The notes under the pieces were generated by a model that did no database searches, had not been told where the DNA came from, and worked only from the letters and a program-made list of their open reading frames with translations. A stretch of 58,397 nucleotides of DNA from Betaproteobacteria bacterium RIFCSPLOWO2_02_FULL_67_26 (GTDB lineage Bacteria; Pseudomonadota; Gammaproteobacteria; Burkholderiales; SG8-41): the NCBI GenBank assembly GCA_001771935.1, contig MERD01000040.1:48058-106454 (forward strand). Reading direction: 5' to 3'. Numbering within the stretch: position 1 is the stretch's first letter; each line of letters opens with the position of its first letter. Shown here one piece after another: positions 36,254 to 54,728 of this stretch. The position numbers and the translations under genes are program-made.

Positions 36254-36321
36254 CTAATTTCCTCTTCCAGTCTCCACGCCAGTTCTTTGTGTGCTTGATT
36301 GGCAGCCGGGTTGTACATAGC

Positions 36322-36660
36322 TCATGGAATATAAAACCAATCAACGCTTTCGGTGTCGCCGAGGTGGGAGCATTCTCCCGTTCCGTATATCACTAGCGAC
36401 TTATTTGTCGAAAACGCAGTTAGCACTGCCGCAGCCTGGAGCCTCCCCGCAGCCGTGGCCCCATTGAATGCGAATCGACCGGTATTCGTCGCACATGGCG
36501 GCGCGTTGTTGTGCGTGGACGACGTATAGAAAACGACCCTGCCATCAGGAAGGACGTGGAAGTTCGAAATGTTCCCGCCTCCCGTGCCCGCGCTCACGGC
36601 GGTTGGCGCGAGCCAAAGGATCGCCGCAACTGCCGCCATCAAGCGCCGCACGACGGTCAT
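36322..36660 (-). CDS. Small secreted two-Cys protein (copy D)
   Basis: Start reassigned; signal ...AVSA; C...RLQAAAVLTAFSTNKSLVIYGTGEC. Confidence 0.8.
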   Translation of the reverse strand: MTVVRRLMAAVAAILWLAPTAVSAGTGGGNISNFHVLPDGRVVFYTSSTHNNAPPCATNTGRFAFNGATAAGRLQAAAVLTAFSTNKSLVIYGTGECSHLGDTESVDWFYIP

Positions 36661-36770
36661 CCTTTGACGCAGCGATCCCAAACAAACAAAGTTCACGAGA
36701 CAGCTCATCGGCGTGCTCCTCCGCTCAAGTAAAGGGGTCGAATTAGTCGAACCTTGCGCCTTTAATTCCC

Positions 36771-37094
36771 TCATGGGATATAGCAGTTTTCCATTTGGCA
36801 AACGCCTGAACTCGTGTGGTACACATAACAAGCGAATCCTTTATTCAATGCATATGCAGTGAGCGCCAGACTGTAGTAAATCTTGTGCGCTGAATCGGTG
36901 GCCGGGCTGAATAAGGTTCCGTAGAAACCATTGTGATTGGTACACGAGTATCCCGTCGGGTTCGTCCCCCGGACATATACTTGGTCATTGAAAACCGTAA
37001 CTTGCGTCACTTGTTCCAAGTAGTGCCAGCCCGCAATGCAGGGGGTTGATACCAACAACAATGCGGATACCACTGCGAGAATGTAGATCCTCAT
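36771..37094 (-). CDS. Small secreted Cys-containing protein (copy E)
   Basis: SD ggagg; signal MRIYIL...CIA; C...KIYYSLALTAYALNKGFACYV...C. Confidence 0.8.
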   Translation of the reverse strand: MRIYILAVVSALLLVSTPCIAGWHYLEQVTQVTVFNDQVYVRGTNPTGYSCTNHNGFYGTLFSPATDSAHKIYYSLALTAYALNKGFACYVYHTSSGVCQMENCYIP

Positions 37095-37159: not shown

Positions 37160-37573
37160 TTACACTGACCCTACTAACCTTTTCTTCGATCGATAAATGG
37201 ACATCGTTTTAGCATCCCCATCAACCAGCCTTTCAAAAAATAAGTCATCCATTGCCCACTCCGGAAAGCTCATCCATTTAAAAATCATAGTTCCTTTAAC
37301 CTTCTTGATTCCCACACACCATCCCTGAGGAACCGACCGCTCCTGCAACTCAAACATTTCTGCGGGGTAAGGATATGGATAATCACTGTCCTTAGATGTG
37401 TGCAAATACCACCACAAGCCGTCGTCTCGTTTCTCAAGTGCTTGGACCAAATATTCTTTGCCAACCGAAAGATCTCGAATGGGCCCCTCAATATGAATGG
37501 ATTGCCCAAGACGCGCTCGCACTTCAACGTCACCGATCTCAGCTAAATCATTGCATATACACTTCACACGCAT
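37160..37573 (-). CDS. Putative immunity protein for cassette 5
   Basis: Directly downstream of toxin; low GC; no signal peptide; LSVGKEYLV...YPYPAEMF...FPEW...FFERLVDGD. Confidence 0.7.
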   Translation of the reverse strand: MRVKCICNDLAEIGDVEVRARLGQSIHIEGPIRDLSVGKEYLVQALEKRDDGLWWYLHTSKDSDYPYPYPAEMFELQERSVPQGWCVGIKKVKGTMIFKWMSFPEWAMDDLFFERLVDGDAKTMSIYRSKKRLVGSV

Positions 37574-37610
37574 ATCTTTTCGATCCACAAGGGTTATCTT
37601 CCTCTGCTGC

Positions 37611-38540
37611 TTACTCCGCGTGCTTTGTAAATTTAAAATCCGTCAAGCTGCCAGTTTTTGGGTCTCTAACATAATGAACTGTAGAAGTCTTGCCAGCAGT
37701 AGATGTTTCAGTGTACTGCCATTTTTCCATCCCCTTGAATTTCGGATCACCGAGATTCTCAATGATCTTCGTTCCCTTCCCTTCCTTAGCCGCATCTAAA
37801 ACCATCTTATCCATTACACTTCTTGGCTCGCGGCTAAATTTGTCTGCTACCCTTGCAGTGATTTTCCCCTCCCTTTGTGCAGTAGCGGCAGTACTTGCGC
37901 TACGTTCTATCTGGCTTAATGTCTTCGCCGCGCCAATATTTAGACCACTTAATAAACCAGTTGCACCTCCCGCAATTGCTGCATCTGAACTTGCCGCGAT
38001 GGACCAATTGACCTGCCCAAACGCAGCTGCCTGGCTTATAGCGTCGGCAGCAACACCCAGGCCGTAACCAATACCTGTCAGCTTCGCAACCTCCACCAGA
38101 AAAACGGAGAGCGGCGAGTTTCCGTCTGGGTCCACAAACTTGTACGGGTTATTGTTCCCATACGCATACCGGTTGAAGCTGTGGAGGTTTTCCTCTCTAA
38201 ACCCAACCGCATCCACCCCCATAAACCGCCCCACCACCGGGTCGTAGTAGCGCGCCCCGAAGTAGGAGAGGCCCGTGTCCGCGTCAAACGCCTTGCCGTG
38301 GAAAAACTGCCTATTACCCGCCGCGGCGGACTCGTTTTTGGTCCGTTCCCCGTACGGCCGGTAACCCTCGCGCCAGACGATATTGCCGTCGATATCGGTG
38401 GCGGCGACGGGACTGCCCGCGACATCGGTGTGGATAAAGATGAGCGCTTCAGTCGCCTCTGCCGGGGCAGGTACGATGAGCAGCGCTATGGCAAGCGCCA
38501 TCCAGACTGGATAGAACCACTTGATGGATTTGGGTGTCAT
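37611..38540 (-). CDS. Signal peptide + Rhs core + toxin tip, cassette 5 (putative BECR-like RNase)
   Basis: Signal ...PAEA/TE; FIHTDVAGSP; ARYYDP..GRF; NNPYKFVDPDG; tip ends HYVRDPKTGSLTDFKF. Confidence 0.85.
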   Translation of the reverse strand: MTPKSIKWFYPVWMALAIALLIVPAPAEATEALIFIHTDVAGSPVAATDIDGNIVWREGYRPYGERTKNESAAAGNRQFFHGKAFDADTGLSYFGARYYDPVVGRFMGVDAVGFREENLHSFNRYAYGNNNPYKFVDPDGNSPLSVFLVEVAKLTGIGYGLGVAADAISQAAAFGQVNWSIAASSDAAIAGGATGLLSGLNIGAAKTLSQIERSASTAATAQREGKITARVADKFSREPRSVMDKMVLDAAKEGKGTKIIENLGDPKFKGMEKWQYTETSTAGKTSTVHYVRDPKTGSLTDFKFTKHAE

Positions 38541-38589: not shown

Positions 38590-38790
38590 TTAGTCAAGCT
38601 TGGACTCCCAGTCCGGATCAATTTCATACAAAGCATCGCCGATATCACGCTGATGACAACCTTGCGCTTCCAACTGGTCGATCAGCTGCCGTAGTGGAAG
38701 TGGTGCGCTTAATCTCCACGGTTTTCTTGAATGAGGCGGTGTGGCCTCAGCCTCGTATTTATCACCGAGCTTCTTGATTGACAGAGTCAT
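38590..38790 (-). CDS. Putative immunity protein for cassette 4
   Basis: 66 aa; starts 1 nt after the toxin stop. Confidence 0.7.
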   Translation of the reverse strand: MTLSIKKLGDKYEAEATPPHSRKPWRLSAPLPLRQLIDQLEAQGCHQRDIGDALYEIDPDWESKLD

Positions 38791-38791
38791 G

Positions 38792-39757
38792 CTATTCGCC
38801 TACAGCTTTTATTCGTTCGTAGTTCTGATAGCCACGCTGATTAATCTGCTCTAGTTCCGTCTTGTAATATGGGCTCGTCGGATTGGGATAATTAGCCCGG
38901 CCAGGTGCCGGACCACAGTCAAGAATTCGACATCCTTGATCCATTTTTTCATTAATCCATCTGCGGTTATTTTCCATCCATTTCTCAGGAGGAGTCTTCG
39001 TTGGGTTATACCAGCTTGCGCCACGGGCCTGTGCAGTTGGAATGACTCGATCCGCCATTCCCTCTCCAATCACTATTGCCTCTTGGGCACCTTTTGACGC
39101 TTGACGTGCCGCCCAAGCAACTGCTGCTCCCCCACCAATTGCCCCGCCGACTGCTCCTGCCGCTGCTGAGGGTGCAGCCTCCTGTGCCGCTCCCCTCAAA
39201 CTTACATCAGCGAAGTTTCCAAACGCAGCCCACTGGCTTACGGTATCCGCCGCAAGAGCGAGTCCGCCAGCTGTGGCAGCACCCGCAATCATGCCCTTGA
39301 CCACGGGAATCAAGAAAATCAGGAATGCCGCATTACCATCGGAATCCAGATATTTGTAGGGGTTGTTATTCCCGTAGGCATAGCGATTGAAGGAGTGTAG
39401 ATTCTTCTCATCGAATCCCTGCGCATCCACCCCCATAAACCGCCCCACCACGGGGTCGTAGTACCGCGCCCCGAAGTAGCTCAACCCCGTGTCCGCATCA
39501 AACGCCTTGCCGTGGAAAAACTGCCTATTACCCGCCGCGGCGGACTCGTTCCTGGTCCGCTCCCCGTAGGGACGGTAGCCCTCGCGCCAGACGATATTGC
39601 CGTTGATGTCGGTGGCGGCGACCGGGCTGCCTGCCACATCGGTGTGGATGAAGGTCAGCGTCTCAGTTGCCTGAACCGGAGAAGCGGCAACGATAAGCAA
39701 CGCGATAGCGAGTGCTGACCAGACCCGATGCAACCACTTGATGGATTTGGATGTCAT
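38792..39757 (-). CDS. Signal peptide + Rhs core + toxin tip, cassette 4 (unknown activity)
   Basis: Signal ...PVQA/TE; Rhs core; NNPYKYLDSDG; tip VIGEGM.DRV...N.RWI...DCGP...SPYY..E. Confidence 0.85.
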   Translation of the reverse strand: MTSKSIKWLHRVWSALAIALLIVAASPVQATETLTFIHTDVAGSPVAATDINGNIVWREGYRPYGERTRNESAAAGNRQFFHGKAFDADTGLSYFGARYYDPVVGRFMGVDAQGFDEKNLHSFNRYAYGNNNPYKYLDSDGNAAFLIFLIPVVKGMIAGAATAGGLALAADTVSQWAAFGNFADVSLRGAAQEAAPSAAAGAVGGAIGGGAAVAWAARQASKGAQEAIVIGEGMADRVIPTAQARGASWYNPTKTPPEKWMENNRRWINEKMDQGCRILDCGPAPGRANYPNPTSPYYKTELEQINQRGYQNYERIKAVGE

Positions 39758-39779: not shown

Positions 39780-40190
39780 TTAACTGTCGTTTGAGAAATT
39801 AAACTTTCTCGCCGAGTCAATTAATTCATCTGTTGCACTCTTCAAGTGTTCTAGAAATTCAGAAACAGCCTGCGATTCACGAACAGGGAACCGTACAAGC
39901 AAATCCTGTCCTTTTTGATGAATCATCCGAACTGACGACTCTACGGTCCACACAGATTGTTCCCATCGTGCGTCTAACCACCACGAATAAGCTTTGCCTG
40001 AGCGCGTTTCAACATCAACAAATGCTTCTAAGACTGGGCCAGTCTTATAGCGTCGTATATCAAAACCACGCTTCGCACCACTCACGCCGGGTTTATCGCG
40101 AAGCGAATGCGCTAGCTCAAGCAAAGCTTCGTTTATTAAGCTAATACCGTCCAAGAGGGATCGCCCGATGATGTTATTTGGGTCCTGCAT
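39780..40190 (-). CDS. Putative immunity protein for cassette 3
   Basis: 136 aa; starts 6 nt after the toxin stop; low GC; no signal peptide. Confidence 0.7.
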   Translation of the reverse strand: MQDPNNIIGRSLLDGISLINEALLELAHSLRDKPGVSGAKRGFDIRRYKTGPVLEAFVDVETRSGKAYSWWLDARWEQSVWTVESSVRMIHQKGQDLLVRFPVRESQAVSEFLEHLKSATDELIDSARKFNFSNDS

Positions 40191-40196: not shown

Positions 40197-41153
40197 TCAT
40201 TTCGGAAACTTACCACGCTCAGATACAGCTTCCTTCAGCGTTTCAGGAGAAATGTTGCGTACGCTTACGTGTCCCGGAGGGAACTTATCAATCGTTACTG
40301 AGCCGGGTGGAAGTTTTGACGTGTCTACACCGAAGTAGTTTTCTCCAGGCCTAAGCACCGGGCGTTCACCTTTTGGCAATGGGTTAGAGAGAGAATCTCG
40401 AAAAGAAATTGCCTCTTCGCCTGGCCTGACTTTGAGGTTTGAAGGAGATGGATTTCCTTCTCGATAAATGACTTTTGGAGAGCTGCCAGTTCTCGCAGCG
40501 TTTGCCACACCGGCTAGTGCTCCCCCTTGCGCGCCCCCAGCAAAACCCAGCAGCGCGCCGACAAAGGCACCATCGCCAGCAGCATCTACTACACCGCCTA
40601 CACCCCATATGTTGGCAACGGTGCCAGTTTGATAGTACTGAATTCCCGCGTTGAATACGGCCGCTGATCCTCCCCCAATGGCTGCTCCACCTCCAACCCA
40701 TGCCAAGATTGGAATAATTATGGTCGGCGAATTGCCATCCGGATCCTTGAATTTGTAGGGATTGTTATTCCCGTAGGCGTAGCGGTTGAAGGAGTGCAGG
40801 TTTTTCTCATCGAAATGCTGTGGGTCCACCCCCATAAACCGCCCCACCACCGGGTCGTAGTAGCGCGCCCCGAAGTAGGAGAGGCCCGTGTCCGCGTCAA
40901 ACGCCTTGCCGTGGAAAAACTGCCTATTACCCGCCGCGGCGGACTCGTTCCGGGTGCGCTCCCCGTAGGGCCGGTAGCCTTCCCGCCAGATCACGTCGCC
41001 ATTGATGTCCGTGGCGGCGACGGGACTGCCCGCGACATCGGTGTGGATGAAAGTCAGCGTCTCGGTCGCCCGAGCTGGAGCGGCAGCGATGAGCAACGCC
41101 ATGGCGAGCGCTGCCCAGACCTGATAGAACCACTTGATGGATTTGGGTGTCAT
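40197..41153 (-). CDS. Signal peptide + Rhs core + toxin tip, cassette 3 (possible ART-like fold)
   Basis: Signal ...PARA/TE; Rhs core; NNPYKFKDPDG; tip IYREG...NLKVRP..AISF...PPGHVSV. Confidence 0.85.
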   Translation of the reverse strand: MTPKSIKWFYQVWAALAMALLIAAAPARATETLTFIHTDVAGSPVAATDINGDVIWREGYRPYGERTRNESAAAGNRQFFHGKAFDADTGLSYFGARYYDPVVGRFMGVDPQHFDEKNLHSFNRYAYGNNNPYKFKDPDGNSPTIIIPILAWVGGGAAIGGGSAAVFNAGIQYYQTGTVANIWGVGGVVDAAGDGAFVGALLGFAGGAQGGALAGVANAARTGSSPKVIYREGNPSPSNLKVRPGEEAISFRDSLSNPLPKGERPVLRPGENYFGVDTSKLPPGSVTIDKFPPGHVSVRNISPETLKEAVSERGKFPK

Positions 41154-41195: not shown

Positions 41196-41474
41196 TCATG
41201 CCGATGGCTTGGAATATGGCAACGAGATTCGACGCGCCGCACAGACTGCCTCGTAGTGCGTGAGTGCTTCCGATAGTTGCTCTCGCACATCTTCGATTTC
41301 CGCCGCCAGATCCACTACTTGGTTAGCCTCCAAGAGCTTGGCCATCCGTTCCATGCTTCGTACCAGCGCATTCAAAGTATCGCCTTGAACGACAACACCG
41401 GGATAGTTTCGCTCTGGAAGCTGGACTATCGCGAAGTTGGTCTGACGGCTCAAAAGCTCAACATGCCCACTCAT
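41196..41474 (-). CDS. Putative immunity protein for cassette 2 (DUF6959-like)
   Basis: N.AIVQLPERNYPGVVVQGDTL motif; starts 2 nt after the toxin stop. Confidence 0.7.
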   Translation of the reverse strand: MSGHVELLSRQTNFAIVQLPERNYPGVVVQGDTLNALVRSMERMAKLLEANQVVDLAAEIEDVREQLSEALTHYEAVCAARRISLPYSKPSA

Positions 41475-41476: not shown

Positions 41477-42406
41477 TTACCTCGGTGTCGGTGTGAACGT
41501 GATGTATGGTTTATTGGGATCGACAGTCCCGCGCAAGAAGTCCTGATTGCGTGGCTCACCCAAACCACGCTGGCCTTCGGGAAGCGAACTTTTCATACTG
41601 TGCGCGGTTGATCCCCGTGTGCTCTCTGGAATAACATAGTCCCAATCAGATGTGGGGCCTGCCGTTCCTTTGGCCCTGCTACCGACAACCGAGATCTCGG
41701 TGCCGGTTCTATCGGCCGCGTTCTGGATACGAGCGATCTCGCTGGTAGTCAGGTTCTCAAGCTTTGCCCCCCCGCCTGCTACTGGCCCTACACTCTTGGC
41801 AACACTCGCCCCTATTCCAATAGCCTTGATAACGCCTAATCCCGCAGCCGTTACACCAAGATCGGGAAACGATGTAGGTATCACTTGCCCCGAGCCCGCC
41901 GGTACCGCAGGCATGGGCGCTAACGCGTCGAATCCCAACCATAATCCCACGCCTACGATCATCGGGAGGATGGCTTGGCCTGCCCTCCCGTCCGGATCCA
42001 CGAATTTGTACGGATTGTTATTGCCGTAAGCGTAGCGATTGAAGGAGTGCAGGTTCTTCTCATCGAATCCCTGCGCATCCACCCCCATAAACCGCCCCAC
42101 CACAGGGTCGTAGTAGCGCGCCCCGAAGTAGGAGAGCCCCGTATCCGTATCAAACGCCTTGCCGTGAAAAAACTGCCGGTTACCCGCCGCGGCGGACTCG
42201 TTCCGGGTCCGCTCCCCGTACGGCCGGTAGCCCTCGCGCCAGATCACGTTGCCGTTGATGTCCGTGGCGGCGACCGGGCTGCCCGCCACATCGGTGTGGA
42301 TGAAGGTCAGCGTCTCGGTCGCCCGAGCTGGAGCGGCAGCGATGAGCAACGCCATGGCGAGCGCTGCCCAGACCTGATAGAACCACTTGATGGATCTGAG
42401 TTTCAT
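41477..42406 (-). CDS. Signal peptide + Rhs core + nucleotidyltransferase-like toxin tip, cassette 2
   Basis: Signal ...PARA/TE; Rhs core; NNPYKFVDPDG; tip VVGSRAKGTAGPTSDWDY (pol-beta GS...DxD motif). Confidence 0.85.
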   Translation of the reverse strand: MKLRSIKWFYQVWAALAMALLIAAAPARATETLTFIHTDVAGSPVAATDINGNVIWREGYRPYGERTRNESAAAGNRQFFHGKAFDTDTGLSYFGARYYDPVVGRFMGVDAQGFDEKNLHSFNRYAYGNNNPYKFVDPDGRAGQAILPMIVGVGLWLGFDALAPMPAVPAGSGQVIPTSFPDLGVTAAGLGVIKAIGIGASVAKSVGPVAGGGAKLENLTTSEIARIQNAADRTGTEISVVGSRAKGTAGPTSDWDYVIPESTRGSTAHSMKSSLPEGQRGLGEPRNQDFLRGTVDPNKPYITFTPTPR

Positions 42407-42426: not shown

Positions 42427-42720
42427 CTATTTTTTAGCCCACATGAGAAAAGTTTGAAGAATCTCCTTCAAATTCCGCGGGCCACAGTCTCCTTTAAAGA
42501 CGCCATTCTCAATCCGACAGAGAATCCAGTCATTCTCGTCTTCGCGCTGAATTTTGATCGTATCGAAGCTACGAGAATACAAGGGCGTGTCTGTCAATTC
42601 GATAGTGATTGCCCAACCCGGGTTGTCAAGGGTTTCAATCGTTATCCCATATGTGTGCTCCCAGTCTCCATTGCACATGGAGACATACCACTCTTGAAGA
42701 CTATCAAGCGTGTCGATCAT
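42427..42720 (-). CDS. Immunity protein Imm53-like
   Basis: WY..MCNGDWEHTYGI.IETLDNPGW signature; ATGA overlap with the toxin stop. Confidence 0.85.
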   Translation of the reverse strand: MIDTLDSLQEWYVSMCNGDWEHTYGITIETLDNPGWAITIELTDTPLYSRSFDTIKIQREDENDWILCRIENGVFKGDCGPRNLKEILQTFLMWAKK

Positions 42721-43640
42721 TGCTGTCTCGACCCAGGAATTTCATCTGGGGTTGCGGGGCGCACTCCTCCGGGAATACTTTTCCCTTGCGTGTGAGGCGT
42801 CGAAACGCGCTCGCCCGTATCCTTATTCGTATGAGGACGGCCAACGACATCTGTACTTTGCTTTGAATCCCAGCCGCTTGGATTCCTAGGATTTGGTGTC
42901 CAAGTCTCATGCCGGGTAATTTCTCCAGTCCTAGGGTCAGTCTTCCAAGTTGTATGCTCTGCATCCGCGTCTTTGGCTGGCTCTACTTTATTGCCTCGGC
43001 TAAAGATTAGATTCCCAATTTTGTCCGCTAATTCCGAGAAGCCCGGCAATTGGTTTCCCGAAACCGCTGACCCTGGTGTCGTCAGAATAGTCAAACCGGA
43101 ATCATTGCTGGCCGGGAATCCCTGTAACCCCGGCTGTGGTTTTGCCGCTTGATAACCCCCAAGATATACATACGTACCTACGGCAATTCCGATAAATAAA
43201 ATCTTATCCGCATACCTTCCATCAGAATCTATGTACTTGTATGGGTTGTTATTCCCATATGCATATCGGTTGAAGCTGTGGATGTTGTCTTCCCTGAATC
43301 CAACCGCATCCACCCCCATAAACCGCCCAACCAGGGGATCGTAGTAACGGGCGCCGAAGTAGCTCAGGCCTGTATCCGCGTCAAAGGCTTTGCCATGAAA
43401 AAACTGCCGATTACCCGCCGCGGCGGACTCGTTCTTAGTCCGCTCCCCGTAGGGCCGGTAGCCTTCCCGCCAGATCACGTCGCCATTGATGTCCGTGGCG
43501 GCGACGGGACTGCCCGCGACATCGGTGTGGATGAAAGTCAGCGTCTCAGTTGCCTGAACCGGAGAAGCGGCAACGATAAGCAACGCGATAGCGAGTGCTG
43601 ACCAGACCCGATGCAACCACTTGGCCGATTTGCTTGTCAT
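42717..43640 (-). CDS. Signal peptide + Rhs core + Ntox24-like toxin tip, cassette 1
   Basis: SD ggagggg; signal ...PVQA/TE; Rhs core; NNPYKYIDSDG; tip PNPRNPSGWD...H.NK.TG..V.TPH...PGGVRPA.PDEIP. Confidence 0.88.
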   Translation of the reverse strand: MTSKSAKWLHRVWSALAIALLIVAASPVQATETLTFIHTDVAGSPVAATDINGDVIWREGYRPYGERTKNESAAAGNRQFFHGKAFDADTGLSYFGARYYDPLVGRFMGVDAVGFREDNIHSFNRYAYGNNNPYKYIDSDGRYADKILFIGIAVGTYVYLGGYQAAKPQPGLQGFPASNDSGLTILTTPGSAVSGNQLPGFSELADKIGNLIFSRGNKVEPAKDADAEHTTWKTDPRTGEITRHETWTPNPRNPSGWDSKQSTDVVGRPHTNKDTGERVSTPHTQGKSIPGGVRPATPDEIPGSRQQ

Positions 43641-43712: not shown

Positions 43713-46700
43713 CTAGTCATCGAGCAGCAGTTGAAGGATCGCCGGCAGCCAACTGAGGTTGTAGATCGTGACCTGGAACGTGGTCGAGCTTTGCGCGTTG
43801 TTCGCGTCGCCCGAGTAGTCCGCCGTGATGGTGTGGCTACCCACTGAAAGACTGGAGAGCGTAATACTCGCCGAGCCATTGGTGACAGTCACCGGTGAGC
43901 CAAAAGGTACACCGCCCTCCTTGAAAGTCACCGTTCCGGTCGGCGAGCTACCGGAAACGTTGACCGTCAACGTGACATTCCCGCCGATTAGTGAAGATAT
44001 CGAACCGGTTGATGTCGTGGTCGCTGTCCCGACTCGGGTAATGGCCTTGACGCCGACCAGCTTGCCCTGGAGATAGACGTACTCCTTGAGGTCGGATCCC
44101 CAACTCGAAGTCGTGGGCGTGTCCTCCAGCAGGAGCTGACCGTCGAGGCCGTACATGAAGTAAGTCTTTATGCCTCCCTTCTCCGTGCGCACGCGCATGT
44201 TGAGTCCGTCGTACGCGTAGTTCACCGGGTCAGTCTGGCCACATCTGAAGCAAGTCATTTGTAAAGCGTCGTTATAGGTGAACATCGGCGTGCTCGCCGT
44301 GCCGTTGTTAACGACATTTCCATAGAGGTCGTAGGCAAACTGGTATGGCCTGTTGGAAATGCTGGCAAGCCGGTTCGAGCCATCGTAGCCGTAGTTCAAT
44401 ATCTGGCCGCCTTTGGTCTGCGAAAGAAGGTTTCCGGCACCGTCATAGCTGAATGCCCGCGCCTCGCCGGAGGTGGTGTTGGCCAACACTAGACGGTCAA
44501 TAGCATCGTACTGCAGGTCCGGCATCGAGTTGAGCCCATCCACGATATCGTCAACTCGCGTCTCAAGGCTCTTTACGTTGCCCGTGCCGTCATAGGTGTA
44601 GGTATGCTTTAGATCAACCAGCGGGGGCGTGCTGCGGAGAGAGGCCAACTGCTGAGGCCATAGCCGGTTATTGAGTGCAATCGACGTGGTGACGCCATTC
44701 GCATACTCGACGGTTTTCAGTTCTCCCGACGGATGGAAGTCAATGTTTCCGGCGAATGGAGTTGCAGCCCTGGGCCGCCCGAACCCGTTCGGGTTGAAGC
44801 TAACCACTGTCCCTGACGGGAAAGTAGTTGTGCTTCTTCCGTCGTTACCGGAGTAGGAATGGCCGAGCGAATATATCCGGCCATCGACCGTCAGCCGATC
44901 CAGCGTCAGGTTCTTGTTCGCGTCGTACTCGAAGTGCCGTAACGCCGCTGTGCCATATTCCACATCCTTCAACAGTCCGTCGCCGTAATAGCTCCGGATT
45001 ACAGTGGGCAGTCCGCCCGGGTAATTAATTTGAGTTAGGCGATTGAGCGCGTCGTAGATAAAGCCAGTGGTTGGTGTCCCGTTCACGGAACGCGAGGTCA
45101 TGTTGCCGACCTGGTCTCGTCCAAAGGTCGTCGTATCGGTTTCGGGATCAATGATTGACGTCAGGAAATTGCCGGCGGGAACTTGGCCAACTGCGTTGTA
45201 CACATAGGCCCGCGTCTTGTCCCCCTGAGCTACCGTGAGAATCCGCCCGATCGGATTGCGCGTAATGGTCACGTTTGCTCCAGGCTCAGGAACAGAGATG
45301 CTCATCAACTCACGCTTGTCGGGGTCGCCATAGGCACGGTACGAATAGGTATGCGTGATATTCCGCTCGTTCGTGATCGCTACGGTCGTGGCACCATAGT
45401 TGTACGTTCGCGTCGCGGGCCCAGGGTGCTTCACTGTCTTTATCCGGTCGAGCATGTCGTAATCCATGCAAGTTCCCGCCGGCGGATTGCCCGGGCAAGG
45501 AACCCCCGATCCGGCGTTCGGATAGGATACGTAGATACGCTGGCCGACGGCATTATGAGCCAAGTTAATGGTTGAGTTCTGGCTCGGAGACGCACTGTCT
45601 GTCTTGACGACCGAAGCCATTCTCCCAAACCCATCGTAGTTGACGGTTTGAGTAAGCGTGCCTCGGGCCACAACCATTTGGCTGGCGGAAGGATAAGTGA
45701 TGGATACGGGATTCCCGAATGGATAGGTAATCGCGTAAGACCCAGGCTGATTCCCTTGAAGACGATTCAGTCCATCGTAACGGTATTGAATCGTGTCACC
45801 TTTTCCGTCCATCTCAGTGGTCACGTTGCCCTCGTTGCTTATTACTCGAGTTACGTTATTACCGGGAACCGGGCGAATTTCCGTTTGGGGAATGCCGCGC
45901 TTATGGTTGCTGAACTCGGTCGTGAAGCCTGCTCCCCTCGCATCTGTGCGGGTGAGCAGGTTCCCATTGCCAGGGTCGTAGGTGTAATTGGTAGGCACCC
46001 CGAAGCGATTTTCCTGCGTCACATTTCCGCGGGTATCTATGATGCGAGTGATCGAGAAGTTGGGAACACCCAAAATCGTTTCGTCCTTTACCTGGTGGAT
46101 GATCCACGGACCACTGATACTGTTCTGATACTGATACGTCAGGTTAATTGTGCGTGAAAAACCGGAGGAGCTTTCGGTAACAGTTAAGGGATTACCATAG
46201 GCATCGAAATTATTCGAATAATCGGTTGTGTATGTGTTGCCATCCCGAGAAATTACTTTTGTCTGGAGAACGGGAGCACGAGTATCCAAATCGTTTGCAA
46301 GCGTGCTTCCCGGACGTCGATTATCCTGATTGGAGATGAGCTGGCTCGTCCAGGTATAGGTTTCAGTCTGTACTGGTGACTGCCCCGGATCAGTCTGCTG
46401 CTTTGACAGCAAGAGCCCGACGCGCCAATAGGTTCCCGTCTCAACGGTGCCATATCCCACGTGCTGATAGGTAGTAGTACCATTGAGTGCTGTGACGGTT
46501 GTCGTATCGGGATCGTTGAATGCGATCGATGGAATGTACGAAAATGTCCATGCGCCACCGTCTGAAGTGGTCTTCCCGGATACGACCGTGTTTTGCACTC
46601 CGACTGCAAAAATCGTTTGAATATATGAATAGTTGATCGTTCCGCCTTGCGGATAAGTCACACTCGTCATGGACTTGAGACCCGGACTACCGCCGGTCGA

Positions 46701-47567
46701 CTTGTATGTGTAATGCCATGCCCCACCGGCTGGCGGTGTCACGGTTTGGAGGAACAAGCCAACGGAAGGAACGACTGCAACCTCGTACTGCCATGTTCGG
46801 GTTCCGTCGCTTATGGAAGTGAGACGCACTCCGTTAGCGTCGCTGGTGTACGAGTACGTGACCGTGCGCCCATCAGACGTGATCAACGTGCCTGGCACCA
46901 TAAAGCCACTGAAAGATTGGTAGCTGATCGTCATGTAATTGCCGTTCCGGTCCACGATACGTGTGGTATACCAAGCCTGCTGTCCAAACGGCGCATTCGC
47001 ATCAGCACGCTGCGTCATCTCGTAGCGTGTTCCATCCGGCGAGTAGACAAGCAGCCCTGTAGGACTGCTCATACACTCCGCGCGCCATCTGTTGGTAGTG
47101 ACAAAACGTGATTGGGCGAGAAAATAAGTATCGTCCCGAAAAAGAATCTGCCTGCTGCCGTCGGGAAGTTCCAATACAGGCATCCGAAAGCCGTCTTCAA
47201 AGTCTGCGAAGCAAATATCAACAGAGGCTTTTCGAAGCACCCGGCCGAAATGCATGGTCCAGCCAACTCCGAAGGGGGTCGGTTCTGCGACACCGGACTC
47301 GTCCACGTTGGTATACGACCGTTGAATCTTGAGATCGAAGCCTCCGTTCCCCGGAATGTAAAGGTCGACGTAGTGATGTTGTAGCCGCCCGGTGTGAGGA
47401 TCAATGTGCTCGTTGAAATGCTGGTTTAGATAGGAGCGCGTGGGATACAGCCCCGGCTCTTTGTAATAATCGAAGTTCGGGTCTGTGTCCTGTGCCCTTG
47501 CGTGCTGAGCAATACCGAACGTGAAGCTCAGCATGACGATCGCGCGTAGTATCGTCCACGTTTTCAT
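43713..47567 (-). CDS. Secreted Rhs/YD-repeat shell protein lacking the Rhs core, with C-terminal Ig-like domain (1284 aa)
   Basis: SD aaggggag; signal MKTWTIL...HARA/Q; DUF6531-like EHIDPHTG.L...DLYIPG.GG.DL..QRSY; many YD repeats; ends EYVYLQGKLVG, then Ig-like PTGTVTF...GSHTITADYSGD, then WLPAILQLLLDD. Confidence 0.9.
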   Translation of the reverse strand: MKTWTILRAIVMLSFTFGIAQHARAQDTDPNFDYYKEPGLYPTRSYLNQHFNEHIDPHTGRLQHHYVDLYIPGNGGFDLKIQRSYTNVDESGVAEPTPFGVGWTMHFGRVLRKASVDICFADFEDGFRMPVLELPDGSRQILFRDDTYFLAQSRFVTTNRWRAECMSSPTGLLVYSPDGTRYEMTQRADANAPFGQQAWYTTRIVDRNGNYMTISYQSFSGFMVPGTLITSDGRTVTYSYTSDANGVRLTSISDGTRTWQYEVAVVPSVGLFLQTVTPPAGGAWHYTYKSTGGSPGLKSMTSVTYPQGGTINYSYIQTIFAVGVQNTVVSGKTTSDGGAWTFSYIPSIAFNDPDTTTVTALNGTTTYQHVGYGTVETGTYWRVGLLLSKQQTDPGQSPVQTETYTWTSQLISNQDNRRPGSTLANDLDTRAPVLQTKVISRDGNTYTTDYSNNFDAYGNPLTVTESSSGFSRTINLTYQYQNSISGPWIIHQVKDETILGVPNFSITRIIDTRGNVTQENRFGVPTNYTYDPGNGNLLTRTDARGAGFTTEFSNHKRGIPQTEIRPVPGNNVTRVISNEGNVTTEMDGKGDTIQYRYDGLNRLQGNQPGSYAITYPFGNPVSITYPSASQMVVARGTLTQTVNYDGFGRMASVVKTDSASPSQNSTINLAHNAVGQRIYVSYPNAGSGVPCPGNPPAGTCMDYDMLDRIKTVKHPGPATRTYNYGATTVAITNERNITHTYSYRAYGDPDKRELMSISVPEPGANVTITRNPIGRILTVAQGDKTRAYVYNAVGQVPAGNFLTSIIDPETDTTTFGRDQVGNMTSRSVNGTPTTGFIYDALNRLTQINYPGGLPTVIRSYYGDGLLKDVEYGTAALRHFEYDANKNLTLDRLTVDGRIYSLGHSYSGNDGRSTTTFPSGTVVSFNPNGFGRPRAATPFAGNIDFHPSGELKTVEYANGVTTSIALNNRLWPQQLASLRSTPPLVDLKHTYTYDGTGNVKSLETRVDDIVDGLNSMPDLQYDAIDRLVLANTTSGEARAFSYDGAGNLLSQTKGGQILNYGYDGSNRLASISNRPYQFAYDLYGNVVNNGTASTPMFTYNDALQMTCFRCGQTDPVNYAYDGLNMRVRTEKGGIKTYFMYGLDGQLLLEDTPTTSSWGSDLKEYVYLQGKLVGVKAITRVGTATTTSTGSISSLIGGNVTLTVNVSGSSPTGTVTFKEGGVPFGSPVTVTNGSASITLSSLSVGSHTITADYSGDANNAQSSTTFQVTIYNLSWLPAILQLLLDD

Positions 47568-47668
47568 TGTGACTTCTCCCCTTACCTTCAGCGTGGCACA
47601 AGCGTTGCGGTTAATTGCAGACGCAAAAAGCAGTTCATGTTTACAGCGTGTTCCTTCTGAAGCGCAAA

Positions 47669-47980
47669 TCAAGAGTTAGGATCGACCTGATTGACGATAC
47701 AGAATCCTGAACCATCGATTCCGTCGGTGTAAACCGTCACCCCTGAGTTCTGAATTTTTGCTATCAGAGTGACGGCAATCATGGTTTTCGCGCTTTCCGG
47801 TATCTTCATCCAGCCAGCAATGGTTCCCGCACAGTTATCCGGCAAACCTGAGTCAAGCATGATCAATAGCCCGCTTGTAAGCGAAGTCGTATTGTAAATA
47901 TTGCCGGATTGATAATGGGGTCCCGAAAATGCAGACGAGGCGAAAACGATTCCACAAAGCACGAGAAGGGCTCTTGTCAT
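47669..47980 (-). CDS. Small secreted two-Cys protein (copy F)
   Basis: SD gggag; signal ...SAFS; PDNC...KTMIAVTLIAKIQNSGVTVYTDG...C. Confidence 0.8.
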   Translation of the reverse strand: MTRALLVLCGIVFASSAFSGPHYQSGNIYNTTSLTSGLLIMLDSGLPDNCAGTIAGWMKIPESAKTMIAVTLIAKIQNSGVTVYTDGIDGSGFCIVNQVDPNS

Positions 47981-48153: not shown

Positions 48154-48486
48154 CTACTTCTGTAACCAAATATGTACAGCCCGAATGCAGGAATCTGGTT
48201 CATAGGTAGCCACACGCACCTTTAGGCCAGTCGCCAGTGCCATCAGCGCGGTCGCATATGCCTTGTCGTGCAGCTTCTGCGTACCAGCAGCATCGCGTGG
48301 AAACGTAATCTGTCCGGCAGTACTGCAGAGCCCCGATCCACCCGTCACAAGGACGACAAAGTCGTCGGTATTGCCGCTGGTATTAGTAACGCCCGTGATC
48401 TCCCCATCCCAAAGGACATAACCAGCGCTTGCATTCAACGACATTGCAAGAAGCAACGCGCCGATCAAGCAAATCATCTTTCTCAT
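48154..48486 (-). CDS. Small secreted two-Cys protein (copy G)
   Basis: Start reassigned to MRKMIC; signal ...ASA; C...KAYATALMALATGLKVRVATY...C. Confidence 0.8.
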   Translation of the reverse strand: MRKMICLIGALLLAMSLNASAGYVLWDGEITGVTNTSGNTDDFVVLVTGGSGLCSTAGQITFPRDAAGTQKLHDKAYATALMALATGLKVRVATYEPDSCIRAVHIWLQK

Positions 48487-48769: not shown

Positions 48770-49510
48770 TCATTTTTCGTCAGGGAAGTAGGAGGGCGGT
48801 ATGGGCCGCCGCCAGTACGGCGTGAAGTCCACTTCGCCGGGCGGGATCACCAGGGGCGGCGGGGCGGCTAGCCACGCCAGCAGCCGCTCGCGCAGGCCGG
48901 CGTCGTGAAAGCGGATCAGCCCCTGGCGCTCGTAATCCTCGATCAGGGCCAGGCGCGCGCCCTGGGGATCGGGGCCGAAGCGGGTGAGCGCGACCACCCC
49001 GCCGTACTGCTCGTAGATCGCCCGGTTCGTCTTCCAGAACTCGATCCAGGGGCCGGACAGCGCTGCCTGCTCCTCGGCATCGGGCCCGGTCAAGCCTTCG
49101 TTGCTGGCGTCGTGCCGCGCGAGGCGCGTGAGTACCGCGCGGAATTCCTCCAGCCACTCGCGCTGCTTGGCATCGAGGTCCAGGGCGGCAAGCCGCTGGT
49201 TCAACTCCTCGAGCTTGCGCGCCCGCTGCGCGCGGTCCTTGCGCTCGAATTCGCGGTGATAAGTCGCAAGCTCAGCAACTTCCCCGGCTGTGGCGTCGAG
49301 CCCATTGTGCTCGACGTAGTGCCTGGCCGCGCGGCGCCACACGAGGTCGAAAAGCCGTTTCAGCTCCGCCGCCTTCGTGCCCGGGCCGGCAAGCTCAGAC
49401 CGGCTGATACCTTCTCCCAGGATCGTCACCGCGTTCTCCGCGCCGCGCGTGCTCAGGGGACCCAGCGTGATCGCGGCGAACAGGATCACCAGTGCATGGC
49501 GGAGTTTCAC
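48770..49510 (-). CDS. Secreted hypothetical protein, weakly SurA-N-like
   Basis: GTG start giving MKLRHALVILFAAITL signal; helical region VTILGEGISRSEL...GLDAT.GEV. Confidence 0.6.
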   Translation of the reverse strand: MKLRHALVILFAAITLGPLSTRGAENAVTILGEGISRSELAGPGTKAAELKRLFDLVWRRAARHYVEHNGLDATAGEVAELATYHREFERKDRAQRARKLEELNQRLAALDLDAKQREWLEEFRAVLTRLARHDASNEGLTGPDAEEQAALSGPWIEFWKTNRAIYEQYGGVVALTRFGPDPQGARLALIEDYERQGLIRFHDAGLRERLLAWLAAPPPLVIPPGEVDFTPYWRRPIPPSYFPDEK

Positions 49511-49909
49511 CGAAACATTGTAGCCCTGTGTTCGCGGCATCCCCCGCGAGCCGCGCCGGACGGGCGTTCCCGGCGACGTCCGCCGCCCCATAGGGGCCCT
49601 CGCGCACCGTGTTGATATCCCGCCTCTGCGCTGCCGGTATTTCCCGGCTCCAGGCCGCACTTTGCACCTGGCCTTGGGCCCGGCGCTTCGTCGAAGGAAC
49701 TGCGTTCACCCCCGGGCCCCGCAAGCGTCGCCTTGCCCCGGTCAGCCAGGAGTTCGCGCATGGCAGTTAACGCCTTGAAGTCAAAACGTATTACGGGAGA
49801 CTGGCCGCGAAACCGCGCGCTGTGTGCAACGCTTTCAAAATTTCCCCGTGGGGCGCCCGAATGCCGTCTGCCACGCCGCCGCACGGTGGCTGCCCGGCAC
49901 TGTTACAAA

Positions 49910-49944: not shown

Positions 49945-50040
49945 CCGGCATGGACGGGCGCGAATCAGGCGAATTGACGGGCTCGCGTCTGGATTGCACA
50001 AAAATTCAGCAAAGCGCCGGCAAGGATCACCGATCTCGGG

Positions 50041-52056
50041 TCACTGCTTCAATATGCGCAGCAGGTTATAGAAATCGTCGGTCCACACGCGGAAGTCAGG
50101 GCGCGGCGCGAGCGGCTCCGCCACGGAGCGGATTGCCTCGGCGGCGAGCAGCTGCTTGTTCTTCGTGACGAGGATCTGGTCCGTGGGCGAGATCCAGTAA
50201 TCGGCGCCCTCGGTGTTGTCCGGGACGTCGGTCACCAGCACCGCGGTCAGTCCGAACTCGGCCGCCAGGCGCTCCACGACCGGCGAGATGTCCACGAAGC
50301 GGTTGGTCGCCTGGAATACGATCACCCCCTCGGGCTTGAGGTGGCGCAGGTAGATCGCCATCGCCTCGCGCGTGATGAGGTGCATCGGTATCGAGTCCCC
50401 CGAAAAGGCGTCGATCGCGAGGAGGTCGTAGCCCTGGTCCTGCTCGCGTTCGAGCGAGAGGCGCCCGTCGCCGAGGACGACGTCCACCTGGGCCTTGCTG
50501 TCGCGCAGGAAGGTGAATTCGGTGACCGCGACCGCGGCCACCTGGGGATCGATTTCGTAGAAGCGGAACAGGTCCCCCTGCCGCGAATACGCCGCAATGG
50601 CGCCCGCGCCGAGGCCGAGCACGCCCACGCGCCGCGGTCCGTCGGGGAGGCTCGCGAACGCGCGCCCGTAACCGCTCGTCGGGGCGAAATAGCTGGTGGG
50701 CCGGGCGCGCGATTCCGGGTCCAGCAGCTGGCCGCCATGGTTGATGCCACCGTGGTACATCACGCGGAACGGCACCGGCGTCGGGTAATCGCGCGTGCGC
50801 ACGACGCCGTAGAAATTGCGCATCTTGATGCGCGTGTTCGAGAGATAGTCGCTGATGTTGATCACCGCGAAGGTGGCGCTCGCCATCACCACCGCGAGCG
50901 AGGCGCCGGCGACCCACCAGCGGCTCGCGAGCGTGCGGTAATAGAGCAGCACCGCGCACGCGACCACCGCGACCTGCAGCTCGTAATAGCCCGACATCAG
51001 GTACGGCGCGGCGACTCCCACCAGCAACGCGCCCAGGGCGCCGCCCACCGCTACCATCACGTAGAAGGTCGTCAGGTAGCGCGGACCGGGCCGGAGCAGG
51101 GTCAGCTCGCCGTGGCAGAACATGCAGCAGGCGAACAGGCCCGCCGCGTACAGCGGCGCGGCAGTCCACAGGTCGAGCGAGTCGCTGTACCAGGCCATCG
51201 CCGGCAGCAACAATGCCGTGGCCGTCAGGAATACACCGCGGTGGTACCAGCGCGGGTGATCGAAGCACAGGATGAAGGTCAAGAGGTAGAGCGACAGCGG
51301 CACCACCCACAGGAACGGGATCGAGGCGACGTTCTGGGTCAGCTGGTTGGTGACCGCGAGCAGCAGGCACGAGCCCACGGCGGAAAGCGCGACCCATGCC
51401 AGGTAATCGCTGATGGCAGGCGGCTTCCCGGCATGATCACCCGCCCGGGCCGCCGGCGCTTGCGCCGCCGCTGGCGCGCGGGTGCTGACGAACGCCGTCA
51501 CCCCGCACAGCAGCACGAACGCGCAATAGGCGATCGACCAGACCCACGACTGCGCGGCGAGCGGCAGGAACGGCTCGATCAGCACCGGGTACGACAGGAG
51601 GGCGAGCAGCGACGCCAGGTTCGACAGCGCGAACAGGCGGTACGGCACGGCATGCCGGAAGCTTTGCCAGAACCACGCCTGCACCAGGGGGCTGGTGGCC
51701 GAGAGCAGGAAGTACGGCAAGCCGATCGTGGCGCCGAGCAGCCCCAGTATGATCAGCGAGGGCTCGCCGCTTTCCGCGCCGGGCTTCCAGTGCGCATCCG
51801 GGATAATCGGTATTACCAACAGGCTCGTGGCCAGCAGCGCGATGTGCAGCCAGGCCTGCCTGCGCGGCGCGAGCAGCCGCGTGGTCCAGTCGGAATAGGC
51901 GTAGCCGACGAGCAGCACCGACTGGAAGAACACCAGGCACGTCGCCCACACCGCCGCCGCGCCGCCGAACCACGGCAGGATCTGCTTCGCGATGACCGGC
52001 TGGACCAGGAACAGCAGAAAGGCGCTGAGGAATATCGTGCCGGCGTGCAGGAGCAT
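50041..52056 (-). CDS. Fused membrane protein/spermidine-synthase-like methyltransferase
   Basis: Multi-TM N-terminus; GVLGLGAG, YEIDP, GDGRLSL, DAFSGDSIP, WTDDF. Confidence 0.88.
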   Translation of the reverse strand: MLLHAGTIFLSAFLLFLVQPVIAKQILPWFGGAAAVWATCLVFFQSVLLVGYAYSDWTTRLLAPRRQAWLHIALLATSLLVIPIIPDAHWKPGAESGEPSLIILGLLGATIGLPYFLLSATSPLVQAWFWQSFRHAVPYRLFALSNLASLLALLSYPVLIEPFLPLAAQSWVWSIAYCAFVLLCGVTAFVSTRAPAAAQAPAARAGDHAGKPPAISDYLAWVALSAVGSCLLLAVTNQLTQNVASIPFLWVVPLSLYLLTFILCFDHPRWYHRGVFLTATALLLPAMAWYSDSLDLWTAAPLYAAGLFACCMFCHGELTLLRPGPRYLTTFYVMVAVGGALGALLVGVAAPYLMSGYYELQVAVVACAVLLYYRTLASRWWVAGASLAVVMASATFAVINISDYLSNTRIKMRNFYGVVRTRDYPTPVPFRVMYHGGINHGGQLLDPESRARPTSYFAPTSGYGRAFASLPDGPRRVGVLGLGAGAIAAYSRQGDLFRFYEIDPQVAAVAVTEFTFLRDSKAQVDVVLGDGRLSLEREQDQGYDLLAIDAFSGDSIPMHLITREAMAIYLRHLKPEGVIVFQATNRFVDISPVVERLAAEFGLTAVLVTDVPDNTEGADYWISPTDQILVTKNKQLLAAEAIRSVAEPLAPRPDFRVWTDDFYNLLRILKQ

Positions 52057-52193
52057 GGGGCCGCTAACGGGTCAAAAGCGCGCTAGTGTACCGCATCACC
52101 CCCGGCACCGGCAGGAAACGGGCCTGCGGCTAACTTGTGAAGCCCGGTGACGCAGTGACGAAGTGAAGGCGCCGCCCCCGGCCGGAGGCGAAA

Positions 52194-52412
52194 CTAGCGC
52201 CGCGGAAGGGCGCGCGCGGCGAGCTCGCCGTAGAATCGCTCGCACAGCCTGAATCGTCGTTCAACCGGATCGAGGCCCTCCGGCATCGAAGCCTCCGCCA
52301 GGGCAAAGGCCGTATCGAACATCTCCGTGCAGATACGGACGCGCTCCTCCGGCTCCATGGAGGCGTAGCCCTCCTCCACCAGCTTCCGAAACTCAGGTGT
52401 CGTGTCCTGCAT
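52194..52412 (-). CDS. Small partner of nucleotidyltransferase (putative TA component)
   Basis: DT.PE...MEPEER....EMF pattern; overlaps the upstream NTase gene. Confidence 0.55.
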   Translation of the reverse strand: MQDTTPEFRKLVEEGYASMEPEERVRICTEMFDTAFALAEASMPEGLDPVERRFRLCERFYGELAARALPRR

Positions 52413-52947
52413 CGAGGCTTTTCCGCAGCAATTCCGTTACCGAGAGTTCTTCCGCCCAGCGCTCAAGATACTTGCGATCCGCGCCGCCCGCAAGGAGCGC
52501 CCGCACATCGCGCATCTGCATTTCCGAGCCCGAATCCCCGGCCCAGGCAAGCTTGGACAGGATCAGGTCTTCGCGGCTCACGATCCAGGCCTCGAAGCCC
52601 GGCATACGGACACGCTGACGGCGCCCGAATTCGTGCCGCCGGTAAGGCGTGTCCTTGCGAACGATGAAGTCGAGCTTGACGAGCTGGCCGAGGTGCAGCA
52701 CGTTGAACATGCCGCCGCCGGCGATGGCGCGGGCGATGTCCGCCTCCGAAGCGTAGTAATCCGGCGCAAACAGCGCCGCCACCGGCTGCGCCAGGCGCCC
52801 CGCAAGCTCCACGACCAGATCGATGTCGCGCGTCATGCGCGGCTGCGCGTAGTAGCTCAGCGCGATCGAGCCGGTGAGCATGTAGGCGATTCCCGCGCGC
52901 TCGAGCCGCGTCGCGGCGTCCTGCAGAACTTCAAGCTCGGCCGTCAT
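52393..52947 (-). CDS. Nucleotidyltransferase-fold protein (putative TA/Abi component)
   Basis: YMLTGS.A...Y..PRMTRDIDLVV; EDLILSKL.W. Confidence 0.75.
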   Translation of the reverse strand: MTAELEVLQDAATRLERAGIAYMLTGSIALSYYAQPRMTRDIDLVVELAGRLAQPVAALFAPDYYASEADIARAIAGGGMFNVLHLGQLVKLDFIVRKDTPYRRHEFGRRQRVRMPGFEAWIVSREDLILSKLAWAGDSGSEMQMRDVRALLAGGADRKYLERWAEELSVTELLRKSLDAGHDT

Positions 52948-53015
52948 GTTGACGACTATACTGCCGAAACCCGGTGACGGCTGGCGACTGACGGGGCGAA
53001 ATCACCCATCACTCA

Positions 53016-54239: not shown

Positions 54240-54409
54240 AGGTTGTGCGGTATTTCACAGTGTCTGACCCGCCGCTGTCGAGATTTCGATCATGCATCGT
54301 CGAATGCGCGGACTGTCGTCCAGCCTTCGACATCATCCCGAATCCCTTCCCGTCACCAGGCAAAAGTATAAATAACGTCAAAAACAAATAGTTACAATCA
54401 TGAGCGCTC

Positions 54410-54709: not shown

Positions 54710-54728
54710 ATTCTCGTCTCCCCCGGAG

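Follow-up and report, generated by a model that had tools for sequence, protein, structure and literature searches.

What does a short hydrophobic tail do at the end of an Rhs shell protein, at the point where the Rhs core should follow? This question is raised by a stretch of 58,397 nucleotides from Betaproteobacteria bacterium RIFCSPLOWO2_02_FULL_67_26 (contig MERD01000040.1 of assembly GCA_001771935.1, positions 48,058 to 106,454 of the forward strand), referred to below as the window. Its interval 43713-44030 comprises the stop codon, the tail and a bacterial immunoglobulin (Ig)-like domain of a gene which encodes a coreless Rhs/YD shell protein. A preliminary description of this DNA suggested that the tail tethers the Rhs cage to a ring of small proteins, in a manner resembling the attachment of AB5 toxin A subunits to their B pentamers, or else that it is an uncharacterized C-terminal secretion signal. 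The profile searches, structure predictions and surveys of related loci presented here lead us to favour, on balance, the view that the tail docks onto a B-like oligomer formed by small proteins encoded near the shell.

Results

The end of the shell protein

The shell starts with a Sec-type leader, MKTWTILRAIVMLSFTFGIAQHARA, recognized by eye, and its matches to DUF6531 (residues 54-123), RHS_repeat (E 6e-15) and YD_repeat_2x (E 1.5e-11) are those of a YD-repeat shell of Rhs toxins. The Rhs core model TIGR03696 does not match the shell in the NCBIfam scan, and the shell polypeptide contains no core followed by a toxin. Close to the C-terminus, Pfam recognizes a Big_3_5 domain (E 7.2e-17, profile positions 7-86 of 88). 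The last 15 residues, NLSWLPAILQLLLDD, lie beyond this match and are followed by the stop codon. This tail ends in LLLDD and contains about nine hydrophobic residues and neither lysine nor arginine. When the last 186 amino acids of the shell were modelled with AlphaFold2 (AF2; 39-row alignment), the mean predicted local distance difference test score (pLDDT) was 90.1. The model consists of beta strands, belonging to the end of the shell and to the Ig domain (the latter at pLDDT above 90), and then of a single helix, LPAILQLLLD, at residues 176-185 of the modelled piece. The preliminary description was thus right in placing an Ig-like domain and a hydrophobic tail where the core would be expected. 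It also held that the tail is too short for a transmembrane anchor and is devoid of the basic end of known signals, and this agrees both with the translation, which has no stretch long enough to span a membrane and no basic cluster, and with the NCBIfam sorting-signal models, none of which matches the tail at E<=0.01.

A full-length search returned 523 homologues of the shell at E<=1e-3 among 8000 scored candidates. In the 120 matches listed, which are those covered by the tail census, 41 proteins are closed by the same kind of tail at an overall identity of 38-68%; examples are WLPAILQLLLDD, (V/I/M)PILQLLL(D/E)(D/E), MQIINSILLDD, MPILMQYLLED and LGIMNSILDSD. Conservation of the tail exceeds chance. 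The remaining homologues form two groups, ordinary chains in which shell, core and toxin are fused, and short coreless shells which terminate directly past the last shell strand (...EYIYLGGKRIAQR...), without an Ig domain or a tail. With a profile built from 40 tails, the window shell scored 31.3 bits versus 9.2 bits for the runner-up among 19,861 ORF (open reading frame) ends of the genome (ORFs of at least 80 amino acids), and therefore the genome contains one tail bearer as judged by this profile, which is narrow and misses the divergent tails of loci L123, L129 and L142. A rule-based tail screen was dropped, its background being 14 in the same 19,861 ends. A search with the Ig domain and tail alone was swamped by multi-Ig proteins, and the lack of a tail in all of its 120 listed matches is uninformative either way. 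No orthologue of the shell was present in 24 genomes of the same genus.

The tail is not tied to the Ig domain. In the protein P0222 it follows a TSP3-type repeat instead, and in the shells of loci L035 and L042 it follows another, non-Ig domain. Sequence comparisons, including those of the proteins described further below, support the view that the tail is a conserved module, separate from whichever domain precedes it (Big_3_5, TSP3-type repeat, PKD, Calx-beta or TcdB_midN).

Co-occurrence of the tail and the small-protein family

We collected 80 loci around relatives of the shell in species-representative genomes, sorted them by the kind of shell end and scanned their ORFs for members of the small-protein family by means of a profile. 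At least one small-family gene (E<=4e-14) was found in each of the six loci with an intact-tail shell, namely L013, L030, L036 and L041 (the last from an Albitalea terrae strain) from Burkholderiales/Rhodocyclales-type records and the gammaproteobacterial L035 and L042, versus none of the 49 loci with complete tail-less shells. There was no match at any of the eight short fragments either, and one (L056) at the 17 shells cut by a contig end. The co-occurrence of motif and small-protein family, proposed in the preliminary description as a test, is therefore found in these loci. In a FastTree phylogeny of 64 shells the tail label changes several times, and the small gene follows it in all five independent pairs; the corresponding p value, 0.0625, is the floor for five pairs, and the count falls to four pairs due to a frameshift in L037, and to three without L148, a locus that entered the sample through a small-family search. 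These observations support the conclusion that the tail tracks the small-protein family.

In locus L037 the reading frame is disrupted immediately ahead of the tail, either by a true frameshift or by faulty assembly: around positions 6480-6560 the shell frame reads ...ETIVGTRPH-stop, and the tail, ...AALISIITNLLLN-stop, is found in another frame. Weak small-family matches upstream of L037 and L076 were inspected and rejected as not being convincing genes.

The association bears on the idea that the tail could be an amphipathic anchor, dipping into the outer membrane of the producer or into a membrane of the target, with the small proteins being unrelated neighbours. The tail, predicted to be a short helix that is strongly hydrophobic and acidic at its end, would suit such a role. 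However, a mere anchor leaves unexplained both the distribution of small-family genes between tail-bearing and tail-less loci and the enrichment of tails near small genes reported below, and we regard it as the least probable of the explanations considered here.

Predicted fold of the small proteins

The seven paralogues of the small family encoded in the window (Table 1) have about 85 mature residues and two conserved cysteines, and the family profile finds all seven of them and none elsewhere in the genome. Two genes are located directly upstream of the shell gene, with 99 bp between the end of the nearer one and the shell ATG, and the cluster of five (35156-37094) lies past the toxin array. 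Sec leaders can be read by eye on both the shell and the small proteins, and the genes stand side by side; in export and adjacency the pair thus resembles the subunits of AB5 toxins. A search of 1.84 billion cluster representatives with a 19-member profile of the family gave 6,615 matches at E<=1e-3. In Pfam, searched at E<=10, one of the window paralogues was assigned to DUF5992, and the others gave chance-level rows.

The AF2 model of the small protein encoded next to the shell (149-row alignment; pLDDT 90.6, predicted template modelling score 0.77) contains strands, a single helix (residues 65-76) and two further strands. The top rows of a Foldseek search with this model, which are below significance, were LT-IIb B, pertussis toxin subunits, cholera toxin B, a Citrobacter cholera toxin-like B subunit and Stx1 B. 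A structural aligner run against 48,161 representative chains returned 12 chains at Z>=8; the best B-subunit scores were those of pertussis S5 (9.2; root-mean-square deviation, rmsd, 2.4 over 75 residues), PltB (8.6), LT-IIb B (8.4), PltBd (8.3), Stx2 B (8.2) and ArtB (8.0). For SubB the Z score was 9.1 (rmsd 1.9 A over 74 residues). Single-stranded DNA-binding protein (SSB), tRNA-synthetase and other generic oligonucleotide/oligosaccharide-binding (OB) folds reached Z of 7.4 at most. Searches at the sequence level point in the same direction. When the family profile was compared with 177,635 distinct PDB sequences, all nine matches at E<=10 were AB5 B subunits (among them Stx1 B at 0.28, ArtB at 0.32 and SubB at 0.94), with E values between 0.28 and 0.94, none being significant alone. 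Neighbours in a language-model search, which we treat as leads only, included clusters of Shiga toxin B (0.88) and SubB (0.84). The models support the view that the small proteins carry the predicted OB fold of AB5 B subunits.

One member of the family deserves separate mention. In the protein P0242 (516 amino acids) a single leader precedes a tandem array of exactly five small-family domains, joined by linkers of 15-20 residues, and the protein could represent a covalent pentamer; when it was aligned with single-domain relatives, these were spread over more than one of its domains.

Tail-bearing proteins near small genes

The small-family profile matched 12 of 400 other genomes of the order and 22 of 399 genomes of the class (a tally including G719, flagged as unpublished, on which no other result depends), and a phylum-wide draw of 400 genomes contributed one new genome at E<=1e-6. 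We inspected up to 10 kb on each side of the small-family matches, as contig ends allowed. These neighbourhoods added two tail-bearing coreless shells (L148 and L176) as well as tailed proteins of other kinds. In L123 a TcB-like protein with SpvB, FG-GAP and TcdB_midN domains ends with ...STILSLILNDD, and its gene is placed after a small gene and before an RHS protein. Proteases are represented by a subtilase with PPC and Calx-beta domains (L142, ...DLTWLYMMALE), an astacin with a PKD domain (L195, ...AILPSITMLLL), the genes of both adjoining a small gene, and a reprolysin-like protease (L129, ...ALDIIRSIINIE). A DUF6973 protein (L194, ...IMVPIISSILN) and two proteins unmatched in Pfam (L192, ...GWLPSVLDLVLSP; L183, ...GWLVPVLSIIQ) complete the series.

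A fixed criterion, requiring at least six of the last 11 residues to be L, I, V, M, F or W and none to be K, R or H, was satisfied by 6 of the 63 same-strand ORFs of at least 250 amino acids lying within 1.5 kb of a small gene, versus 17 of 2235 elsewhere (Fisher p 2.3e-5); this criterion was set after the first cases were known, and kinship is uncorrected. The preliminary description had named a motif common in genomes with no such small proteins as a finding that would speak against its proposal. When 400 genomes of the order were scanned with a nine-tail profile, the 388 small-negative ones yielded no match at E<=1e-3, an outcome which speaks for the proposal; at this threshold the profile matched only in G094 and G192, both small-positive and both contributing their tails to it. 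At weaker scores, two clear C-terminal tails were found in G133, one on a TcB-like protein (L198, ...PAVLSTILNLLLED) and one on an FG-GAP protein (L199, ...PAVLSAILQLLLED). The weak matches in G329 and G351 were not C-terminal, and the remaining weak ones were in short open frames.

Small genes also occur in other settings. In L196 (G1096:C8:108000-127999), ten differing small genes stand in tandem at 13513-17343, after a gene for a 2468-amino-acid fused Rhs-like protein and a 175-amino-acid gene; such a repertoire would suit alternative or mixed rings. In L184 a small gene (9986-10309) of the subfamily of the window gene nearest to the shell follows a CdiA-like protein (DUF637, haemagglutinin repeats; 5340-9107) and a 118-amino-acid gene. 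The small family may therefore serve other polymorphic toxin types as well.

Separate core-toxin genes

Each of the five genes downstream of the shell encodes a leader (read by eye), an Rhs-core stretch of about 150 amino acids, nearly identical across the five, and a toxin region that differs from gene to gene, Ntox24 and a nucleotidyltransferase-like domain (NTP_transf_2) being among them. TIGR03696 matches all five at E 4e-18 to 2e-20. As each core-toxin protein has its own leader, it should be exported apart from the cage. Among relatives of the shell, 22 stop directly past the last strand (EYIYLGGKRIAQR), including those of L018-L022, L027, L031-L034, L040, L043-L045, L047 and L049. A separate core gene directly follows 16 of these 22 tail-less shells. 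Coreless two-gene Rhs systems are widespread in Burkholderiales-type and some gammaproteobacterial genomes.

It could be imagined that the tail acts inside the Rhs system, either plugging the open end of the coreless cage or holding the separate core-toxin protein. The tail does occupy the place where the core follows in fused Rhs proteins, and a separate core gene is present within 1 kb downstream in all six tail-bearing loci. However, the 16 tail-less shells with a separate core gene indicate that the tail is not needed for the split, and that the split either came first or is independent of the tail. Moreover, tails of this kind are also found on proteases and FG-GAP proteins, which have no cage. 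A function confined to the Rhs system seems to us improbable.

Secretion genes and the sorting-signal explanation

The window contains no secretion gene. In the genome from which it comes (94% complete) there are five secretin-family loci, and TssC, which encodes the sheath in type VI secretion systems (T6SS), was not found. In other genomes small-gene clusters stand beside genes of the type II secretion system (T2SS) or a secretin: in L124 and L125 (G133:C1:5440000-5475000) next to a TPR/STN secretin and a T2SS-E ATPase, and in L140 next to T2SS-F, T2SS-E and an ORF with matches both to colicin D and to a family of colicin immunity proteins.

These facts are relevant to the possibility that the tail is a C-terminal export or sorting signal for secretion across the outer membrane, the small proteins being one-to-one adaptors, chaperones or co-secreted partners. 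As in LPXTG, PEP-CTERM, GlyGly-CTERM and MYXO-CTERM signals, a short conserved motif is found at the extreme C-terminus of secreted proteins of many architectures, after unrelated domains, and the T2SS neighbours in L124, L125 and L140, as well as the secretin-family loci and the lack of TssC in the genome of the window, would be in line with such a function. Unlike those signals, the tail ends in D/E, has no membrane span or basic cluster and has no match in NCBIfam; unlike in sortase-type systems, it co-occurs with a predicted OB-fold protein and with no sortase-type enzyme. Dedicated sorting systems usually have several substrates, but a single tail-bearing protein was detected in this genome, and no secretion gene accompanies it in the window. 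The predicted fold of the small proteins, best matching ring-forming B subunits, also speaks against this explanation. Finally, the second RHS gene of L135 (12903-15461, plus strand) carries a tail-like stretch, AAVMSMMLSIIQGE, near its N-terminus, between the leader and a long PT-rich linker. If real, this single case would mean that the peptide is position-independent, which favours a binding peptide over a terminal signal. Thus, we consider a pure sorting signal rather unlikely, although the two functions may coincide if the outer-membrane secretion machinery recognizes the ring.

Organization of the island

The toxin island spans about 35.1-49.7 kb of the window, and its features are collected in Table 1. 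Positions 1-35000 and 50000-58397 are occupied by ordinary metabolic and transport genes (TctB/TctC, dehydrogenases, an MFS/spermidine-synthase-like protein, molybdopterin enzymes). Upstream of both small genes which precede the shell, an ORF of 296 amino acids (48770-49660, minus strand) has an internal leader-like stretch and no match in Pfam or NCBIfam; it may or may not be a part of the island.

Table 1. Features of the toxin island, with positions given in the window
Feature	Position	Strand	Basis
Coreless Rhs/YD shell protein, 1285 aa	43713..47570	-	ORF 43713..47672 read from ATG at 47570; Pfam and NCBIfam
Shell stop codon	43713-43715	-	
C-terminal tail NLSWLPAILQLLLDD, residues 1271-1285; candidate A2-like docking helix	43716..43760	-	Translation, AF2
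Ig-like domain of the bacterial Big_3_5 type, residues 1192-1268, separating the tail from the shell	43767..43997	-	Pfam PF16640, AF2
Small secreted protein, 103 aa, directly upstream of shell	47669..47980	-	Family alignments; the one folded by AF2
Small secreted paralogue matching DUF5992	48154..48486	-	Pfam PF19454, E 4.6e-26
Five tandem small secreted paralogues	35156-35470, 35521-35865, 35930-36253, 36322-36660, 36771-37094	-	Translation, alignment
Five genes with leader, Rhs core and differing toxin	42717-43640, 41477-42406, 40197-41153, 38792-39757, 37611-38540	-	TIGR03696
Imm53, presumed immunity gene	42427-42720	-	Pfam
DUF6959, presumed immunity gene	41196-41474	-	Pfam
Further small presumed immunity genes	39780-40190, 38590-38790, 37160-37588	-	One after each remaining core-toxin gene

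Discussion

The docking function which we favour for the tail would make it equivalent to the A2 helix found in AB5 toxins. Being provided with Sec leaders, the shell and the small proteins would meet in the periplasm. There the small proteins (DUF5992-like, with a predicted OB fold and one conserved disulfide) would form a ring, in which the number of subunits is probably five. The Ig domain could hold the hydrophobic C-terminal helix clear of the cage, and the helix would sit in the central hole of the ring, or in an equivalent groove, with its acidic end at the far face. In such a complex the ring would lend the cage a surface binding the target cell, as B subunits do for AB5 toxins, and might also be the feature recognized by a secretin-type export system; the location of small-gene clusters beside secretin and T2SS genes suggests that the ring may present its cargo to an exporter of this type. 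The toxin itself would be supplied by one of the five separately exported core-toxin proteins. Since the toxin resides on separate proteins, the C-terminus of the shell is free for the tail. The split Rhs design thus fits docking, because the C-terminus of a fused Rhs protein is buried together with the toxin. The ring, the number of its subunits, the threading of the helix and the function of the ring are features that we infer by analogy with AB5 toxins, from genes and predicted models. Accommodation of the tail specifically in the pore of a pentamer is a more tentative proposal than docking as such, and we give it somewhat less than an even chance.

A number of observations weigh against the docking model. 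Foldseek returned no match to the small-protein model at E<=1e-3, and no match to the Pfam families of B subunits (enterotoxin B, Shiga toxin B, pertussis S2/S3) was obtained at E<=10. The Z scores of 8-9 obtained with B subunits are only about 1-2 above those of generic OB folds, and two other proteins, the pro-protein-glutaminase prodomain (Z 9.1) and CipA (8.5), match the small protein equally well. The five-domain protein P0242 is a single sequence on one metagenome contig of 3 kb, with no homologue of its length. The segment preceding the tail has no disulfide-closed A1/A2 loop: there is no cysteine in the shell past a CFRC motif about 170 residues before its end, and none in the Ig domain or in the tail. 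Known AB5 toxins act on eukaryotic cells, but the cargo toxins found here are accompanied by immunity genes and therefore appear to be aimed at bacteria. The correspondence between tails and small genes is not complete either. For most small genes sampled from the order and the class no partner can be seen, the ten small genes of G133 are all distant from its two tail-bearing proteins, and the 10-kb contig of L037, where the tail is frameshifted, contains no convincing small gene. Tail-less fused Rhs/Tc-like proteins, which have the toxin as their C-terminus, adjoin small genes in L133 (one gene), L136 (three), L146 (four) and L196 (ten), and thus the tail is not the only link between the small family and its neighbours.

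The closest parallel is provided by AB5 toxins. According to the accessible part of PMC11610972, their hallmark is a C-terminal helix of the A subunit inserted in the helix-lined pore of a pentamer of OB-fold B subunits; the A subunits of SubAB (a subtilase) and EcxAB (a metzincin) arose by replacement with a protease, and orphan B subunits are known. As in SubAB, EcxAB/CfxAB and Shiga toxin, a gene for a small leadered subunit with a predicted OB fold stands here beside one for a larger leadered protein ending with a short helix. As with SubAB and EcxAB, proteases are found among the partners, namely a subtilase (L142) and metalloproteases (L129, L195), and small genes also occur as orphans, as B subunits do in AB5 toxins. 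Unlike in AB5 toxins, the small proteins fall outside the known B sequence families, up to 10 differing small paralogues are present per locus, the A part is a 1285-amino-acid Rhs cage without an enzyme of its own and without the A1/A2 loop mentioned above, and the likely targets are bacterial.

Similarities to Tc (ABC) toxins are also apparent. In both systems more than one polypeptide makes up an Rhs-repeat cocoon, which would be mounted here on a carrier, probably five-fold, that makes contact with the target cell, and TcB-like proteins bear the same tail in L123 and L198. The pentameric TcA is a channel-forming protein of about 280 kDa that carries the TcB-TcC cocoon, attached through the beta-propeller of TcB. 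In contrast, the loci examined yielded no TcA, the carrier that we propose consists of OB-fold subunits of about 85 amino acids, the attachment would be by a terminal helix, and all parts are Sec-exported. With canonical Rhs effectors, either T6SS-delivered or Sec-exported like WapA, the island shares the YD shell, DUF6531, the succession of core, variable toxin and immunity gene, and an array of spare toxin modules. It differs from them in that the shell and the core-toxin proteins are encoded by separate leadered genes, the shell ends in an Ig domain and a tail, and no T6SS sheath gene was found.

In literature searches, which exclude subscription-only papers, we found no published description of a system consisting of the tail and the small proteins, no mention of 'DUF5992' and no relevant title or abstract in which AB5, B subunit or pentamer was combined with Rhs. 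The accessible parts of two sources agree with this: the term 'Rhs' does not occur in that of PMC11610972, nor do 'AB5', 'pentamer', 'OB fold' or 'B subunit' in that of the polymorphic-toxin survey PMC3482391. The novelty would thus lie in combining the AB5-type architecture with a B family and with cargo that are new to it, above all an Rhs cage.

A broader and still more tentative reading, which we consider possible rather than probable, is that these loci represent an undescribed AB5-like class of Gamma- and Betaproteobacteria. In such a class, DUF5992-like rings would carry interchangeable cargo by means of a portable C-terminal helix. This cargo would comprise Rhs cages that receive exchangeable toxins in trans, TcB-like halves, and proteases of the subtilase and metalloprotease types. 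The rings would function in export by systems of the secretin type as well as in binding to the target, here probably other bacteria.

The type VI system and TcA channels are known ways for Rhs cages to reach their targets, other routes being unknown. For the Rhs proteins which Gram-negative bacteria export by Sec, both the exit from the cell and the encounter with a target are open questions, to which a B-type ring together with a portable tail would offer a concrete answer. It would also explain why the shells gave up their own core, as this frees the C-terminus. If the model is true, AB5 toxins would be one corner of a larger system comprising thousands of uncharacterized B-like proteins and several types of cargo. 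On the broader reading, these loci would provide the first link between Rhs/Tc cocoons and AB5 toxins, and the first AB5-type weapon used between bacteria. The pair of tail and ring would then constitute a natural modular way of attaching proteins to a pentavalent carrier.

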